A stretch of DNA of 64,000 nucleotides from an uncultured Phycisphaerales bacterium (GTDB taxonomy: Bacteria; Planctomycetota; Phycisphaerae; Tepidisphaerales; Tepidisphaeraceae), in contig CAVWLP010000003.1 of assembly GCA_963755915.1 (NCBI GenBank), positions 640,001 to 704,000 on the forward strand, given 5' to 3'. The notes beneath the pieces were generated by a model. It was not told the DNA's origin and did not search any database. It saw nothing but the letters and a program-made list of their open reading frames with translations. A program made the translations under genes and the position numbers. Of this stretch, positions 41,144 through 47,741 are shown piece after piece (position 1 is the stretch's first letter; each line of letters begins with the position of its first letter).

Positions 41144-42486
41144 ATGAATGAGGAATCGATATCACACTTGGCGGGTGAGAAGTACGATCCGCGCGAAATC
41201 GGCGCCCGGCTGGGGACGATGGACCCGGACGACGGCGCGGTGGTGCTGGAATTTTTGCCGATGAAGGTGGCGGCGGCGGCGCTGGAGAAGACGGAGACCA
41301 GGGTGGCTGGGCAAATCGTCCACCGGATGGATCCGGTGCGGACGGCAAATCTGATCGCGCGGATTCCCCAGCCAACGGCGGTAGGGATCTTAAGCGCGAT
41401 GGCGCCGGACGATCGGGTCGACGTGCTGGAGGGACTGAAGCCGCAGTTGCACGATGAGCTGCTTCGGCAGATGGAGGCCGCGCACGCTGAGGAGTCGAGC
41501 GCCTGGAGCAGTATGCGCCACACACCGCCGGCGGAATCATGACGACGCGGGTGACGGCGCTTCTGAAGAAGATCACGGTGGAAGAGGCGGTCGCGGAATT
41601 GCGGCGGATCAACCAGGAGATGGGGCAGTTTTTTTATGTGTACGTCGTGGACGAGCAGCATCGTTTGATCGGCGTGCTGTCGATGCGCGATCTGCTCCTG
41701 GCGCAGGGGCCTAAAACACTTGAGCAGATCATGATTCCGATGGTGCGGAGCGTGCCGGCGTCGATGCACCAGGATGAAGTGTCGCGGTTGATGCGATCTT
41801 CGCGATATCTGGCGCTGCCGGTGGTCGATGAGCAGAAGCGGCTGGTAGGGATGGTCACGCTAGATGACGTCGTCGACGTGATCGAAGAAGAGGCGACCGA
41901 GGACGTGCAGAGAATGTTCGGCGCCGGGGCAGAGGAAAGATTGGGAAGCTCCTGGCGGTTCAGCTTTTCGCGGCGGTTCTGGTGGCTGGAGGTGAACCTG
42001 GGGACCGCGTTCCTGGCCGGGCTGGTGGTGGCGATGTTCGGGCAGACCATCGCCCGGTTTGCCGTGCTGGCGATCTTTATCCCCATCGTTTCGAGCATGG
42101 GAAGCAACGCGGGGGCGCAGGCGATGTCGGTGGTGATCCGCGGGATTGCGCATGGAAGGACCGATCGGAAGCTGCTGAAAAAAGTGCTGGCGCGCGAGGC
42201 GATTGTGGGGCTTCTGAGCGGCCTGGCGATCGGAGCCACAACGGCAGTCATTGCGATGATGTGGCAATATCATCATGGCGTCGTGCTGGGGATGGTGGTT
42301 GGGGTGTCGATCGTCATCACGCAAACGCTGGCGTGTGTCAGCGGCGCCGGAATTCCCTTCCTGGTGAAGCGCATGGGGTTTGATCCGGCCCAGTCGGCGA
42401 CGATTATTATCACGACGATCACTGACGTGGCGGGGTTTTTGAGTCTGCTGGGATTGGCGACGATGTGCGAAGGATGGATGCGATAA
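41144..42486 (+). CDS. mgtE: Magnesium transporter MgtE (frameshift near 41500)
   Basis: MAPDDRVD, CBS pair, EEEATEDV, GSNAGAQ, FDPAQSA..TTITDV. Confidence 0.9.
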
Positions 42487-43865
42487 TAGAGGAAGAGCCT
42501 CGATCTCCGCTTGTTGAACTGCTTTTGCTGGCGCTGCCGACGGTGGCGCAGATGGCGTCGTACACCATCATGCAGTTCATCGATACGCTGATCCTCTCGC
42601 GCCTTGGAGCGACCCCCCCTACCGCCGCTTCCAACAGCGGGATCCTGGTCTTTTCGCCGATCGCGCTGGGGATGGGGATATTGGTGCTGGTGAACACGAT
42701 GGTGAGCCAGAATTTCGGGCGGGGGGATTTCGCGAAGTGCGGGCAGTATTTGTGGCAGGGAATCTGGCTGGGAGTGGTTTTTGGCCTTGGGCTGCTGCCA
42801 TTATCGCTGGCGGCGCGGCCGATTTTCGCCGGCTTCCATCACCCGGCAGCGCAGGCGGCGATGGAGGCGACCTATTTCCGGATTACCGTGCTGTCGTCGC
42901 CGGTGAAGCTTATTTCGATGACGATCGGGCAGTTTTTGCTGGGGATCAATCGGCCGAATGTGTTGACGATCGCGGCGGTGATCGGCGTGAGCATCAATGC
43001 CGTCGCGGCGTGGTGCATGGTGCTGGGACACGGCGGGTTTTCATCGTGGGGAATCGCGGGGGCAGCGTGGGCCCAGAATATCGGGGTGGTTTGCGAACTG
43101 ACAACGCTGGTGGCGATTTCGTTTGGCAAGGAGATCCGGCGGAAGTTTAATGCGATGGATGCGCGGCTGAGATGGGAGGAGATGAAGACGCTGATCCGAA
43201 TCGGCCTGCCATCGGGGTTGCAGACGTTCAGCGATCTGCTGGCGTGGTCGATTTTCTGCAACCTGGTGCTGGGAATGCTGGGGCCAAAGGCGATGGCGGC
43301 CAATGCATTTATGTTCCGGTATCTGGTGGCGGGGTTTATGCCGGTGGTGGGGATTTCGGCAGCCGTGACGGCGCTGGTGGGACGGTATATCGGGAGGGGA
43401 GAGCCGGACGTAGCGGCGCGGCGGGCGCATTTGGGATTCGCGGTGACGCTTGTTTATATCGGGATATGCGGGGTGGTTTATATCGTCTGGCGGAGGGCGC
43501 TGATTGAACTGTTCACCGACGATCCGGAGATCATCCGGATCGGGGGGATTTATCTGATCGTCGCGGCGATTTATGAAATTTCCGATGCGATGTATCTAAC
43601 CTATATGGGGGCACTGCGCGGGGCGGCGGATACGCTTGCCCCCTCGGTGGTGGGAGCGGTGTTGTGCTGGACGATCACGGTAGGCGGGGGGTATTGCGCG
43701 GCGCGGTTTGCGCCGGGGTTGGGGTATGGGGGGCCGTGGATGGTGGCGTGTGTGTATGGGTGGGTTTTGGGGTCGTATATGTTGATACGATTTTCGAAGG
43801 GAAAGTGGAGGAGAATTCACGTGATGGAGACGGTCCGGGCAAAGGCGCGATTCAGCGCGGATTGA
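42474..43865 (+). CDS. MATE family efflux transporter
   Basis: LALP, about 12 TMs, GALRGAADT. Confidence 0.9.
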   Translation: MDAIIEEEPRSPLVELLLLALPTVAQMASYTIMQFIDTLILSRLGATPPTAASNSGILVFSPIALGMGILVLVNTMVSQNFGRGDFAKCGQYLWQGIWLGVVFGLGLLPLSLAARPIFAGFHHPAAQAAMEATYFRITVLSSPVKLISMTIGQFLLGINRPNVLTIAAVIGVSINAVAAWCMVLGHGGFSSWGIAGAAWAQNIGVVCELTTLVAISFGKEIRRKFNAMDARLRWEEMKTLIRIGLPSGLQTFSDLLAWSIFCNLVLGMLGPKAMAANAFMFRYLVAGFMPVVGISAAVTALVGRYIGRGEPDVAARRAHLGFAVTLVYIGICGVVYIVWRRALIELFTDDPEIIRIGGIYLIVAAIYEISDAMYLTYMGALRGAADTLAPSVVGAVLCWTITVGGGYCAARFAPGLGYGGPWMVACVYGWVLGSYMLIRFSKGKWRRIHVMETVRAKARFSAD

Positions 43866-43873
43866 AAGTTCGG

Positions 43874-43913
43874 CCCCCTCCCCTGCCCTCCCCCGGAGTA
43901 CCGGGGGTGGGGG
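43874..43913. repeat. Repeat family C hairpin
   Basis: CCCTCCCCCGGAGTACCGGGGG; related copy at 58099-58140. Confidence 0.7.
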
Positions 43914-43960
43914 AAAGAGTGGGGAAAGTGGAGGAAGATTCATGTGGGGGAAACAGCAAA

Positions 43961-43988
43961 TTGACGGGGGGGATCTATCCGATAGAAT
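43961..43988 (+). promoter_or_regulatory. sigma70 promoter for the ileS leader
   Basis: TTGACG-N16-TAGAAT; the spacer contains a G homopolymer. Confidence 0.65.
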
Positions 43989-43998
43989 CCGGTGCGTT

Positions 43999-44061
43999 AT
44001 GCGGAATGCCGCGGTCGCGATTATTCTCCGAATGATTATTGTCCCGCGGCAACTCGGGTAG
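43999..44061 (+). CDS. Ile-rich leader peptide of the ileS attenuator
   Basis: MRNAAVAIILRMIIVPRQLG*; two tandem ATT-ATT pairs. Confidence 0.75.
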   Translation: MRNAAVAIILRMIIVPRQLG

Positions 44062-44094
44062 GGCGCAAACTATGTATTAAGCATTTGTGAAACG

Positions 44095-44120
44095 CCCTGC
44101 CGGTTCGGCGGGGTTTTTTT
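44095..44120 (+). terminator. Attenuator terminator upstream of ileS
   Basis: CCCTGCCG-GTT-CGGCGGGG then T7; the 5' arm is complementary to GGTAGGGCG (44057-44065). Confidence 0.8.
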
Positions 44121-44153
44121 ATTTTGGCGTGTTGCTAGAGTTGGGAACTAAAC

Positions 44154-47112
44154 ATGGAAGAGAAGAAGAATTTTAAGGCGACGCTGAACCTTCCGCAGAC
44201 GAGCTTCGCGATGGAGGCGAAGCTGACGGCCAATGAGCCGGCGCGGCTAAAGAAATGGGACGAGCTGAAGCTGTATGAGAAGCTGATGTCGGCGCGCGCG
44301 GGAGGGAAGAAGTGGGTGCTGCACGATGGGCCGCCGTTTGCGAATGGGGACATTCACATCGGGCACGTGATCAACAAGACGCTGAAAGACGTGGTGATGC
44401 GGTTTCGCTCGATGCAGGGGTATCAGACGCCGTACGTGCCGGGGTGGGATTGTCATGGGTTGCCGATCGAGCACAAAATCCAGCAGGATGTGGGGCCGAA
44501 ACTTCGGCAGATGAACGTGGTGGATGTCCGCCGGCTTTGCTTCGAGTATGCGGATAAATACGTGAAGATTCAGGGGGAGCAGTTTCGACGGCTGGGGATT
44601 CTGGGGCAGTGGGATGAGCCGTATCTCACGATGAGTCCGCGCTACGAGGCGGCGACGCTGGAGGTCTTTGCGCGGTTTGTGGAGGCGGGGCTGGTGTACA
44701 AGAAGCTGAAGCCGGTGCCGTGGTCGATCGAGAACCAGACGGCGCTGGCGGATGCGGAATTGGAATACCAGGATCGGACGGACGACAGCGTATTCGTCGA
44801 GTTTCCGCTGGAGGGGCAAGATGAGTTTCTGCTGATCTGGACGACGACGCCCTGGACGCTGCCGGCGAACCTTGCAGTGGCGGTGCATCCGGATGTGGAG
44901 TATTCGCGGGTCAGGTACGGGGACGGAAGAGTCGGAGTTGTCGCATCGGCGTTGGCGGAGCGCGTGCTGAAAGACCGGCGCGGGGAAGTCGTGGGAACGA
45001 AAGCGGGGAAGGAACTGGTGGGGCTTGAGTATCGGCATCCGTTTATCGAGCGCAAAGGGAAAGTCGTGGCGGCGGAGTATGTGACGACGACGGATGGCAC
45101 CGGATTGGTACACACCGCGCCGGGGCATGGCGAGGACGATTACGAGACGGGAATCCGCGAGGGGCTGGAGGTTTACAGCCCGGTGCTGGCCAATGGGCGG
45201 TTTGATGAGACCGCGCCGGAATTTATCCGCGGGAAGTCGGTGTGGGAGGCGAATCCGCTGATCGTTGCCGAGCTGAAATCGCGCGGCTTATTGCTGGGCG
45301 AGGAGAAGATCGCCCACAGCTATCCGCACGATTGGCGGAGTAAGAAGCCGATCATTTTCCGGGCGACGGAGCAGTGGTTTATTGCGATGGATAAGCCATT
45401 TTCGGCTGGGTCTGACCCTGCCGGATTAAGGCCGATGACACTTCGCGATCGCGCGTTATCGGCGACGGGGCTGGACCCTTTCAATCCTCTTACGGAACAA
45501 CAGAAAGGTATCGCCGAGGAGCACTGGCGGATTCATGACGAGGCTCAACGCGAGGGGTTGGAACGCGAGGAGCGGGGAGAGCCATTTAAGCCGGCTTCGG
45601 ATGAAGAGCTGCGCGAAATGAATCGTAAGATTGGGCCAATCCTGCCCCAAGTGAAGAGGTTCGCGCCGGCATGGGGCAGAAATCGGCTACGGGGAATGCT
45701 CGAATCTCGCCCCGACTGGTGCATTTCGCGCCAGCGGGCGTGGGGATTGCCGATCCCCGTTTTCTACAATGAGAAGGGAGAGGTGCTGCTGACGGCGGAA
45801 TCGGTGCGCGCGGTGGCGAAGCAATTTGGGGAAAAGGGAAGCGATGCGTGGTTTAACGAAGAGCCGAAGGATTTGCTGGGGGCGGAGTTTAAATATCCAG
45901 CCGGGTTTTCGGCGGAGAAGCTGCGGAAGGAGAAGGATATCTTTGATGTGTGGTTTGAATCCGGCAGCTCGTGGCACGCAGTACTTCAGGCGCGGCCGGC
46001 TCTCAAATTTCCGAGCGATCTTTATCTCGAAGGGTCGGACCAGCATCGCGGGTGGTTTCAGTTGTCCATGCTGCTGAGTTTGGGAGCCGAGGGGAAGCCG
46101 CCATTTGAGCAGGTGCTGACGCACGGGTTTGTGGTGAAGCCGGATGGGACGAAGGTCAGCAAGTCGGACAAGGAATACGTGACGGCCACGCAGGAGATTC
46201 AGCGGCATGGGGCCGATCTGATCCGGCTTTGGTGCTGCAGCGTCGATTATCAAAACGATATCCCGGCAAGCCCGGCGGCAATCCAGGAGTTTGGGGATAA
46301 GTATCGCAAGATCCGCAACACCCTCCGATATCTCGTGAGCAATCTTTACGATTTCGATCCCAACGCGGACAAGACGCCGGCGGATTTTCGCGGGCTCGAT
46401 GGATGGGCGATGAACGAACTGGGCAAGCTCGTCACGGAAGTGGAGCAGGCTTACGGCGCATATCAGCTTCACCGCGCGTTTCGGCTGCTGCATGATTTCT
46501 GCGCAGTGCAGATCAGCGCGATCTATAGCAATGCGATGAAGGACCGGCTTTACTGCGATGCGGCGAATTCGCCGCTGAGGCGAAGATCTCAGGCGGTGAT
46601 GTATCGGATGGCCGATGCGCTGATCCGGTTGCTTTCACCCATGCTGGTCTTCACGGCCGATGAAGCGTGGGAGCATTTGCCGAACAAACTGGCGAAGGAT
46701 GCCGCCGCGGCCAGCGTGCATCTGCTGCTGTTCCCCAAGGTGGAATTGCCGGCTTCGGAGGAAGATCGGAAGCGCTGGTCGCTGCTGATTGAGGCCCGCG
46801 ATCAGGCGACGCCGCAGCTCGATGCGCTGAAGAAATCGGTGGGGCTGAACAAGGCGCTGGATGCGGAGCTGATTTATCATTGCGATGAGGCGACGCAGAA
46901 GCTGCTGGAGGTTTGCGGGGCCGATCTGGAAGACGTGGTGGGAGCCGGATTCCATAGCTTTGCGCGCGGTCAGTGGCGAGTGGAAGTCGTGGATCGGCGG
47001 GAGAAATATAAGGCCTGCGCGGAGCTGGAAGAGACGGCCGGACGTGGGATCGGACGGCGAATTTCCGGATCTGTCGGCACGGGATGCCGCCGTGGTGAGG
47101 GCGCTTCGATGA
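44154..47112 (+). CDS. ileS: Isoleucyl-tRNA synthetase (frameshift near 47020)
   Basis: HDGPPFANGDIHIGH, GWDCHGLPIE, WTTTPWTLP, DWCISRQR, EGSDQHRGWF, KVSKS. Confidence 0.96.
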
Positions 47113-47741
47113 TGGAGCTGGCACCGATCAAACTTGCGGTCCTCGTCAGCGGTTCGGGAACGACGCTCGAGAACATCGTCGCTAAGATCGCGGATAAATC
47201 GCTGAGCGCGAAGATTGAGGCGGTGGTCGCGTCGCGGCCGAAGATCAGGGCCATCGAGCGGGCGACGAAGGCGGGGCTGCCGTGTGAGGTGGTGGATCGG
47301 TCAAAGTATTTTTCGGTGGAGGAGTTCAGCCGGGATGTCTTTCGGATTTGCAGATCGGGCGGGGCGCAATTGATTTGCCTGGCGGGGTGGTTGTCATTCC
47401 TGGAGATTCCGCAGGATTTTGAGGGGAGGATGATGAACATTCATCCGGCACTGTTGCCCAGCTTTGGTGGGAAGGGGATGTATGGATTGCGGGTACACCA
47501 GGCAGTGCTGGAGCAGGGATGCAAGGTGAGCGGGTGTACGGTGCATTTTGTGGATGGGGCGTATGACACCGGGCCGATCATTTTGCAGCGGACTTGCCCG
47601 GTGCTGGAGGACGACACGCCGGAGATGCTGGCGCACCGGGTGTTCGAGGAGGAGCAGATCGCGTTTCCGGAGGCGATCCGGCTGTATCAGGAGGGTCGGC
47701 TGCGAATTGAGGGAAGGCGCGTCAGGGTGATTTCCGAATAA
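47109..47741 (+). CDS. purN: Phosphoribosylglycinamide formyltransferase
   Basis: VLVSGSGTT, NIHPALLPSFGG, GCTVHFVDGAYDTGPII; ATGA overlap with the ileS stop. Confidence 0.93.
   Translation: MMELAPIKLAVLVSGSGTTLENIVAKIADKSLSAKIEAVVASRPKIRAIERATKAGLPCEVVDRSKYFSVEEFSRDVFRICRSGGAQLICLAGWLSFLEIPQDFEGRMMNIHPALLPSFGGKGMYGLRVHQAVLEQGCKVSGCTVHFVDGAYDTGPIILQRTCPVLEDDTPEMLAHRVFEEEQIAFPEAIRLYQEGRLRIEGRRVRVISE

Follow-up and report, generated by a model that had tools for sequence, protein, structure and literature searches.

A candidate isoleucine-gauging transcription attenuator in front of ileS in a Phycisphaerales bacterium and its relation to the attenuator of cimA

The locus considered here raises the question of how a planctomycete controls the synthesis of its isoleucine--tRNA ligase, since its ileS gene is preceded by a promoter, a short reading frame rich in isoleucine codons and a terminator. 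The window, i.e. the whole stretch of 64,000 nucleotides that was analysed, carries these parts in the intergenic region between a MATE transporter gene and ileS. The earlier note had interpreted them as an isoleucine-sensing leader-peptide attenuator rather than a T-box, a reading that agrees with the results below, since the relatives keep the Ile-rich upstream ORF together with alternative stems and no T-box was found. Taking comparative sequence analysis and folding models together, we regard the element as very probably a ribosome-mediated transcription attenuator, which would gauge the supply of Ile-tRNA(Ile) and thereby set readthrough into ileS (and purN).

The promoter, the ORF, both pairs of Ile codons, the hairpin around them, the antiterminator and the terminator that the earlier note had listed are all present at the positions given in Table 1. 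The promoter is the sole promoter-like site between positions 43400 and 44400 (mean of 0.4 in shuffled sequences) and is kept among the aligned relatives as TTG[A/C]C ... GATA[C/G/A/T]AAT. The antiterminator consists of 9 bp (-19.4 kcal/mol, z -3.9), and for the hairpin enclosing the Ile codons the calculated values are -20.5 kcal/mol and z -3.4. The terminator, whose T7 tract lies 33 nt 5' of the ATG of ileS, is the lone terminator-like site in a scan of 1 kb, where shuffled sequences yield a mean of 0.9, so that alone it is not above chance. The element as a whole stands above chance because of its conservation: all 13 genomes of the genus contain it, and 100 of 108 pattern matches are located before two isoleucine genes (see below). 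In one metatranscriptome run, a fraction of 0.10 of the words was found and a single contig of 177 nt was obtained, which lies at 44398-44573, inside ileS and not in the leader.

Table 1 Features of the ileS locus (positions within the window) and of the Leu leader found elsewhere in the same genome
Feature	Position	Strand	Description
MATE transporter gene	42465..43865	+	TIGR00797; context, outside the control of the element
Sigma-70-type promoter	43961..43988	+	-35 box TTGACG 43961-43966, -10 box TAGAAT 43983-43988, 16-nt spacer, 10/12 matches
Leader ORF	43999..44061	+	20 codons, MRNAAVAIILRMIIVPRQLG and stop codon; ATG 10 nt after the -10 box, without Shine-Dalgarno sequence
Hairpin enclosing the Ile codons	44007..44051	+	TGCCGCGG 44007-44014 / CCGCGGCA 44044-44051; formable here, not conserved
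First ATT ATT Ile pair	44020..44025	+	Codons -13/-12 from the stop codon
Second ATT ATT Ile pair	44035..44040	+	Codons -8/-7 from the stop codon
Antiterminator 5' strand	44057..44065	+	GGTAGGGCG, over the leader stop codon
Shared segment	44093..44101	+	CGCCCTGCC, antiterminator 3' strand and terminator 5' arm
Intrinsic terminator	44094..44120	+	9-bp stem 44094-44114, T7 44114-44120; predicted from sequence
ileS	44154..47112	+	Isoleucine--tRNA ligase, presumed controlled gene; TIGR00392 821 bits, cut-off 621
purN	47109..47741	+	Overlaps the ileS stop codon; TIGR00639 165 bits, cut-off 150
Leu leader before a leuA-like gene	G000:C2 about 4221708-4221844	+	Stop codon inside an antiterminator competing with a terminator

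The region upstream of ileS was compared in 39 of 40 relatives (G018 left out), an alignment which the earlier note had proposed as a check and which revealed the Ile-rich upstream ORF and the alternative stems. Within the genus, the ORF, the helix at its stop codon and the terminator precede ileS in all 13 genomes including that of the window. The other 12 contain an ORF of 18-20 codons with 4-6 Ile codons, which ends with GGG TAG and is followed by CCCTGCC and the terminator; the lengths of the ORFs differ by whole codons, and the frame is open and Ile-rich in 13 of 13 cases. None of 27 genomes from other genera of the family (11, and 16 added later) has the element before ileS; one of these 27 negatives is G014, a genome marked unpublished. 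G030, a genome of another family, carries it as well. Across the class the distribution is patchy: an automated caller was positive for ileS in seven of the 79 genomes scored (out of 103 matches), one of the seven being doubtful (G152), and it missed at least G030 and G066, while G032, G111, G069 and G139 also look positive by eye. The idea of a family- or class-wide ileS feature was rejected on the basis of these numbers (7/79 and about six more by eye); planctomycete ileS genes do not generally carry the element, and its main target is cimA. Among the ileS leaders seen by eye, those of L304 (G069) and L307 (G139) end with LRGGIA and LRRGIA before the stop codon, thus containing a single Ile codon, and are followed by a terminator-like hairpin; upstream of ileS in G054 a hairpin is present and a leader is not obvious.

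The connection to cimA emerged from a search with the pattern GGTAGGG-N15-45-CCCTGCC-N2-8-GGCRGGGTTTT, which describes only the stems and the U tract and holds no information on isoleucine. In 185,579 genomes, one per species, it matched 108 times, 31 of the matches being located before ileS, 69 before cimA and eight before genes left unassigned; four of these eight are likewise associated with Ile-rich ORFs, and all but three or four of the 108 matches are titled Phycisphaerae or other Planctomycetota. The identity of cimA was supported by TIGR00977, which scored above its cut-off for four of four matches tested and for the gene of the window's own genome. Citramalate synthase catalyzes the start of the threonine-independent route to isoleucine. 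The genome of the window possesses a second copy of the element, situated before cimA, with the leader MSFARNMTGPIIITPRKLG (L149; G000:C2:4819179, minus strand).

None of the 100 ileS and cimA leaders (31 and 69, respectively) has a stop codon among the 16 codons that precede the TAG. Isoleucine accounts for 29% of these codons (about 5% in the long ORFs of the genome), with a mean of 4.7 and 4.6 Ile per 16 codons in the leader frame versus 0-0.3 in the other two frames, and at least three Ile codons are present in 97 of the 100 leaders. Leucine (3.5-4%) and valine (1-3%) are not enriched in this frame. The Ile codons peak at positions -12 and -9 to -7, position -12 being Ile in 21 of 31 ileS leaders and 39 of 69 cimA leaders, position -8 in 27 and 54, and position -7 in 29 and 54, respectively. 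The codons used are ATT (287), ATC (169) and ATA (8), which means a preference for ATT, since it amounts to about 28% in the long ORFs of the genome.

As a sample independent of the pattern, 90 cimA upstream regions (of 106 matches in 131 genomes of the class) were evaluated with a caller that is blind to amino acids, as it searches for a terminator, then for the best upstream duplex, then for a stop codon, and reads the peptide last. Terminators were called in 57 regions, 51 of which had an upstream duplex, 46 a stop codon located there and 37 at least two Ile codons; as a control, 28 of 1040 terminator-like sites of the window's own genome were positive. Among 26 loci examined outside the class, seven of them with a simpler Ile-ORF scan, the element was detected before cimA in all five genomes of one family and in a single genome of a second family. 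The first genome-wide scan for a leader plus terminator gave 16 matches at 193 terminators; the five of them that were inspected are unrelated, and the leaders of cimA and leuA, which were recognized subsequently, are not among the 16.

The antiterminator helix is 96% paired in an alignment of 14 sequences. For the 100 pattern matches, the complementarity of the core is given by construction, and attention was therefore directed to the flanks. The base 5' of GGTAGGG and the base 3' of CCCTGCC form a Watson-Crick pair in 74 of 100 cases compared with 42.9 after shuffling, realized as G-C (40), C-G (32) or A-T (2), and the next pair outward is formed in 49 compared with 29.5. This covariation is not explained by the terminator, because the base on the 3' side belongs to the loop of the terminator. 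On the tree it corresponds to only one (starred branches) to three independent pairs, and in the window this flanking position shows a G-G mismatch. Different families have stems of different sequence, such as GCCTTAGGGC/GCCCTGAGGC, GGCCCCGGG/CCCGGGG and CTGACCC/GGGTCAG, with pairing within families exceeding that across most pairs of families; the strand of family f1, for example, yields -21.6 kcal/mol with f1 arms compared with -14.9, -12.8 and -11.2 kcal/mol with arms of f2, f3 and f8. As judged from these sequences, the antiterminator and the terminator appear to be mutually exclusive and the antiterminator to be kept through sequence change.

Of 96 leaders, 88 have a TAnnnT motif whose end lies 6-15 nt upstream of the ATG (4.3% for random ATGs), 70 of these 88 also having a TTG at -35 (0.3% for random ATGs), and a Shine-Dalgarno-like word occurs in five of the 96. 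The leader ORF is thus predicted to start at the 5' end of the RNA or a few bases from it, i.e. to be near-leaderless. Deeper families seem by eye to deviate from this arrangement, as they have longer leaders with a Shine-Dalgarno-like GAGG and often a GTG start (L169, L171, L173, L174, L181, L182, L209, L222, L227, L237, L029, L024, L304 and L307). In these families the start codon can pair with a stretch before the first Ile codon (GTGCGGAC/GTCCGCGC), both sides being changed in G048 and G032, and such a start-codon helix may limit re-initiation.

How the position of a ribosome would influence the choice between the two structures was modelled for 96 elements by an equilibrium folding calculation with a hard ribosome mask of 12 nt, a calculation that does not describe kinetics. 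The median probability of the terminator is 0.01 with the A site of the ribosome at the first Ile codon, 0.35 at the last Ile codon, 0.99 two codons further and 1.00 at the stop codon, the corresponding values for the window being 0.00, 0.55, 0.78 and 1.00. At the last Ile codon, the probability exceeds 0.5 in 47 of 96 elements. In the nascent RNA, before the 3' arm of the terminator is available, the antiterminator wins in 88 of the 96 elements when no ribosome is present, in 95 with the ribosome at the first Ile codon, in 84 at the last Ile codon and in none at the stop codon; in the ribosome-free full-length RNA, the terminator has a probability above 0.5 in 58 of 96. In the model, the spacing thus fits a ribosome gauge clearly for the first Ile cluster, and the result is mixed for the last Ile codon. 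The earlier note had proposed that stalling at Ile codons frees the antiterminator; according to the model, however, the antiterminator is already the default structure and is removed by a ribosome at the stop codon. The decision therefore appears to depend on whether the ribosome passes the Ile codons and reaches the stop codon in time.

From these data the following sequence of events can be proposed. Transcription would start a few bases before the AUG of the leader, and, as the spacing suggests, a ribosome would load without a Shine-Dalgarno sequence. In the nascent RNA, GGUAGGGCG, which covers the leader stop codon, would pair with CGCCCUGCC, so that the terminator's 5' arm is held within the antiterminator, as indicated by the folding model and by the compensated sequences. 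When charged tRNA(Ile) is scarce, or when IleRS is limiting or inhibited, the ribosome presumably pauses on the Ile codons, which lie 7-13 codons ahead of the stop codon, and so stays short of the antiterminator helix, and the polymerase would read through into ileS. When isoleucine is plentiful, the ribosome would arrive at the stop codon and cover GGUAGGG, whereupon the terminator is predicted to form and transcription to end near position 44120. With one cassette before cimA, in the same genome and in much of the class, and another before ileS, synthesis and charging of isoleucine would share one signal.

The hairpin enclosing the Ile codons, which the earlier note had listed, is not conserved. 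Across the relatives, 68.6% of the cells are paired, no pair is compensated, and seven of the 14 rows have gaps at six of the eight pairs; its core excludes the antiterminator strand, and it was rejected as a conserved protector. Its role is doubtful. The alternative register GTCGCG/CGCGAC is no better (74.1% paired, uncompensated), and a pairing UUAUCC/GGGUAG seen in some single folds is absent from the consensus. When 64 elements were subjected to RNAalifold, the terminator was the single consensus helix, and no conserved 1:2 helix functioning as protector or pause structure was found in the leader; single lineages may have private 1:2 pairings.

A different view of the same parts would be that leader and terminator are functional and the signal is something other than plain pausing at Ile codons, such as an arrest by the nascent peptide or a general gauge of translation speed for which isoleucine is one input. 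We consider this improbable. Several features agree with it: in deeper families an arginine is retained at the third codon ahead of the first Ile (VRAGII, ARAGIV, LRRGII), proline often follows the Ile run, some ileS leaders have the single Ile codon mentioned above, and expression of ilvB of S. coelicolor was reported to be unchanged when candidate control codons were mutated (PMC1262725). No residue besides isoleucine, however, is invariant among the 100 leaders, and the arginine codon is CGC in the sequences inspected and is located, as seen by eye, inside the helix formed with the leader start codon, pointing to a constraint at the RNA level. A further argument against this view is that the type of codon switches with the operon, to Val with valS and to Leu with leuA.

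The switch to valine was recognized in genomes in which a valS-like gene follows cimA. Direct inspection of 20 genomes and the window's own genome revealed 15 with such a gene, belonging to families f2, f3, f5, f9 and f11 (in G028 a short ORF lies in between), and six without it, i.e. five genomes of f1, f7, f8 and f15 and the own genome. In five of five cases tested, the gene after cimA matched valS best, the hits being partial sequences below the cut-off. Leaders of the families with a following valS have on average 2.65 Ile and 3.39 Val codons (n=23), those of families without it 4.26 Ile and 0.05 Val codons (n=19). This contrast follows family lines, and as kin are not independent, it may represent one or a few events. 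A valS-like ORF after cimA was also noticed in one genome outside the class (L331), and five Phycisphaerae families with this arrangement are represented in L241-L254 and L260. The window's own genome furthermore has a leuA-like gene, split by a frameshift in the assembly, which is preceded by a 24-codon leader with six Leu codons (MTQVNPLLSLQLTPTLPGLGNARS; L150:1209-1345, plus strand) in the same layout as the Ile element. As far as can be deduced from these sequences, the control codons match the downstream genes: Ile before ileS and cimA, Ile plus Val in operons with valS, and Leu before the leuA-like gene.

The restriction of the ileS element to one genus within its family allows its origin to be considered. 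In other genera the gap between the MATE gene and ileS has a median of 30 nt and is within 34 nt in 12 of 20 genomes; in the genus, the median is 314 nt with a range of 135-860 nt (n=9, one of the MATE distances coming from G014), some of the large values probably being inflated by frameshifts. In an IleRS tree built from 49 rows (3 skipped), starred branches place the genus within the family, which makes a single gain a simpler explanation than repeated loss. Each of the 13 ileS cassettes of the genus scores best against a cimA cassette, and 10 of the 13 against one of three cimA cassettes of the same genus. The ileS cassette of L083 can be aligned with the cimA cassette of the window's own genome throughout, -35 box and U tract included, and the promoter before ileS in the window aligns with that of the cimA copy. 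On the other side, the cassettes of the window and of its nearest relative have diverged and find their best matches in cimA cassettes of other genera, and the tree of the elements is weak (see below). Overall, it is likely that the ileS copy of the genus originated by duplication of a cimA promoter plus attenuator into an older MATE-ileS-purN operon.

We are less confident that cimA cassettes were copied to ileS repeatedly and independently. The tree of the elements is weakly resolved, with 48 of 99 branches open; the free tree requires nine label changes, and the AU test does not reject one common origin for all of the ileS elements (p 0.066). The proposal of independent origins was dropped for this reason. 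The widest picture compatible with the data, which we put forward tentatively and rate at somewhat below an even chance, is that of a Planctomycetota isoleucine regulon operating without a transcription factor or T-box. Its unit would be a portable cassette of about 170 nt, composed of a promoter, a leaderless Ile-codon ORF, a default-on antiterminator and a terminator, which would have been old before cimA, copied to ileS independently in several lineages, retuned to Ile plus Val with valS and provided with a Leu counterpart before leuA, and which would manage with two helices, a ribosome at the stop codon being the off-switch.

If the cassette was acquired from cimA, it might no longer regulate ileS here, and what is seen would be a terminator that is constitutive and partly leaky, accompanied by an ORF that is a relic or due to chance. 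The window's cassette is among the most diverged of the genus, with a mismatch at the end of the antiterminator and a strong private hairpin, and most other genera manage without an element before ileS. Against such a decay speaks the fact that the frame, the start and stop codons, four Ile codons at conserved positions and the 9-bp antiterminator are intact, in the nearest relative too, and an unregulated terminator before the one full-length ileS match of the genome would presumably be costly; we therefore judge this explanation very unlikely.

A T-box or another leader binding tRNA, a ligand or a protein, with the Ile codons serving as specifier, can practically be dismissed, even though ileS is T-box controlled in Actinobacteria, as are most aminoacyl-tRNA synthetase genes of Firmicutes (PMC1262725), and diverged T-boxes can escape Rfam (PMC5314783), since the leader has about 125 nt versus the 219 positions of the model, RNAalifold gives no consensus stem besides the terminator, and a single open frame retains several Ile codons, ATT and ATC being exchanged for one another. 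A search of the genome (81% complete) with RF00230, the T-box family, which the earlier note had suggested, gave no match, the control having matched in five of 14 genomes. Rfam detected no family at gathering score in the region 43000-44600 (best E-value 1.8) and no match at 20 related loci.

Leader-peptide attenuators as such are well known: the leader of pheST is designated pheM, and the enterobacterial leaders ilvL, ivbL and thrL are attenuators with Ile codons. The E. coli pheST attenuator and the predicted Streptomyces leuS and trpS attenuators resemble the element described here in combining a leader of cognate codons, an antiterminator and a terminator before a synthetase gene (PMC1262725); they differ in that the target here is ileS, the lineage is Phycisphaerae, the leader is near-leaderless and there is no match in Rfam or by sequence. 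With ilvL, ivbL, thrL and leuL the element shares the Ile-codon gauge and the segment common to terminator and antiterminator (for leuL, see PMC5314783), and Ile codons likewise act as a gauge in the ilvB leaders of Corynebacterium and Mycobacterium (PMC11857589; PMC13236596). The bivalent Ile plus Val leaders of operons with valS come close to ilv-type leaders; the gauge of the genus, in contrast, is Ile only (Leu 4%, Val 3%) and the targets are cimA and ileS. Unlike ilv-type leaders, which are drawn with three hairpins, the element has no conserved anti-antiterminator (1:2) helix that could be found. Judged by sequence comparison and the folding model, it is not a classical four-segment attenuator of the trp/leu type, no conserved protector helix having been found, and it is predicted to work like pheM or ilvL.

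Further candidates for comparison are found among small upstream ORFs. uORFC-8-2 before cysS of Rhodobacterales is likewise a computational attenuator candidate before a synthetase gene; it represents a Cys gauge in another phylum, and no mention of ileS, isoleucine, citramalate or planctomycetes was found in that study (PMC8632094). The leaderless polycysteine sORFs of mycobacteria, termed 'Cys ribulon', also gauge one amino acid at several loci (bioRxiv 10.1101/834739), the output as described there being a freed ribosome-binding site; in the present case the output is an intrinsic terminator, and the various loci resemble one copied cassette. The T-boxes of ileS, which are translational in Actinobacteria, act on the same gene and, in effect, also gauge the charging of tRNA-Ile (PMC1262725), and they differ in binding the tRNA directly and needing no leader ORF; no T-box model matches here. 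Attenuators are known to switch the type of sensor and to hop between genes, and no mention of ileS or planctomycetes was found in that connection (PMC2965389).

The earlier note was not aware of a description of such control for a planctomycete ileS, and full-text searches yielded no account of a leader-peptide attenuator for ileS or cimA or of any in planctomycetes; supplements may list such leaders. The abstract of the survey by Lopatovskaya et al. of 2010 reportedly lists neither ileS nor planctomycetes. The mechanism is a known one; what is new is its target and its lineage, along with the near-leaderless start and an apparent duplication of the cassette. As the underlying mechanism is textbook knowledge, the surprise is limited. 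The element would add a third way of controlling ileS to the two types of T-box, would extend leader-peptide attenuation to a phylum without a description in the literature searched, and would, from the side of regulation, independently support a role of the TIGR00977 enzyme in the isoleucine synthesis of these bacteria. It would also be a clear case of regulon growth in which a whole promoter-attenuator cassette, short and self-contained, was copied onto a new gene, placeable on the species tree.

The earlier note had extended the control to purN. This gene does adjoin ileS and is probably co-transcribed with it; the gene order, however, is the same with or without the attenuator. In the window, ileS and purN form one frame of 1195 amino acids. 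A fusion protein was rejected, since purN is a separate ORF 3' of ileS in 12 of 12 relatives fetched (eight of the same genus and four of other genera; G014 supplies one of the 12), with stop and start overlapping or close, and the C-terminal IleRS sequence ...ARSWKRRPDVG... continues out of frame in the window and in frame in all 12. The probable cause is an assembly error of 2 nt near 47013-47028.

Some minor observations concern the surroundings of the element and other sites. The interval from the MATE gene to the promoter contains, at window positions 43877-43915, a C-rich/G-rich inverted repeat (ccctcccctgccctcccccggagtaccgggggtggggg), which is possibly a small dispersed repeat; a similar sequence is present upstream in L003. 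An ORF of 11 codons, MLIWSIITIAR (G000:C2:1230812, minus strand), is situated before a strong terminator and just after an apparent tRNA or tmRNA end; it is probably due to chance because no gene is close downstream. The pattern match in Pseudomonas (L049) lies before a gene which we take to be rnk-like, and the leader of the window weakly matches the rnk_pseudo leader of Rfam (E 5); this resemblance probably reflects a shared terminator-like sequence.
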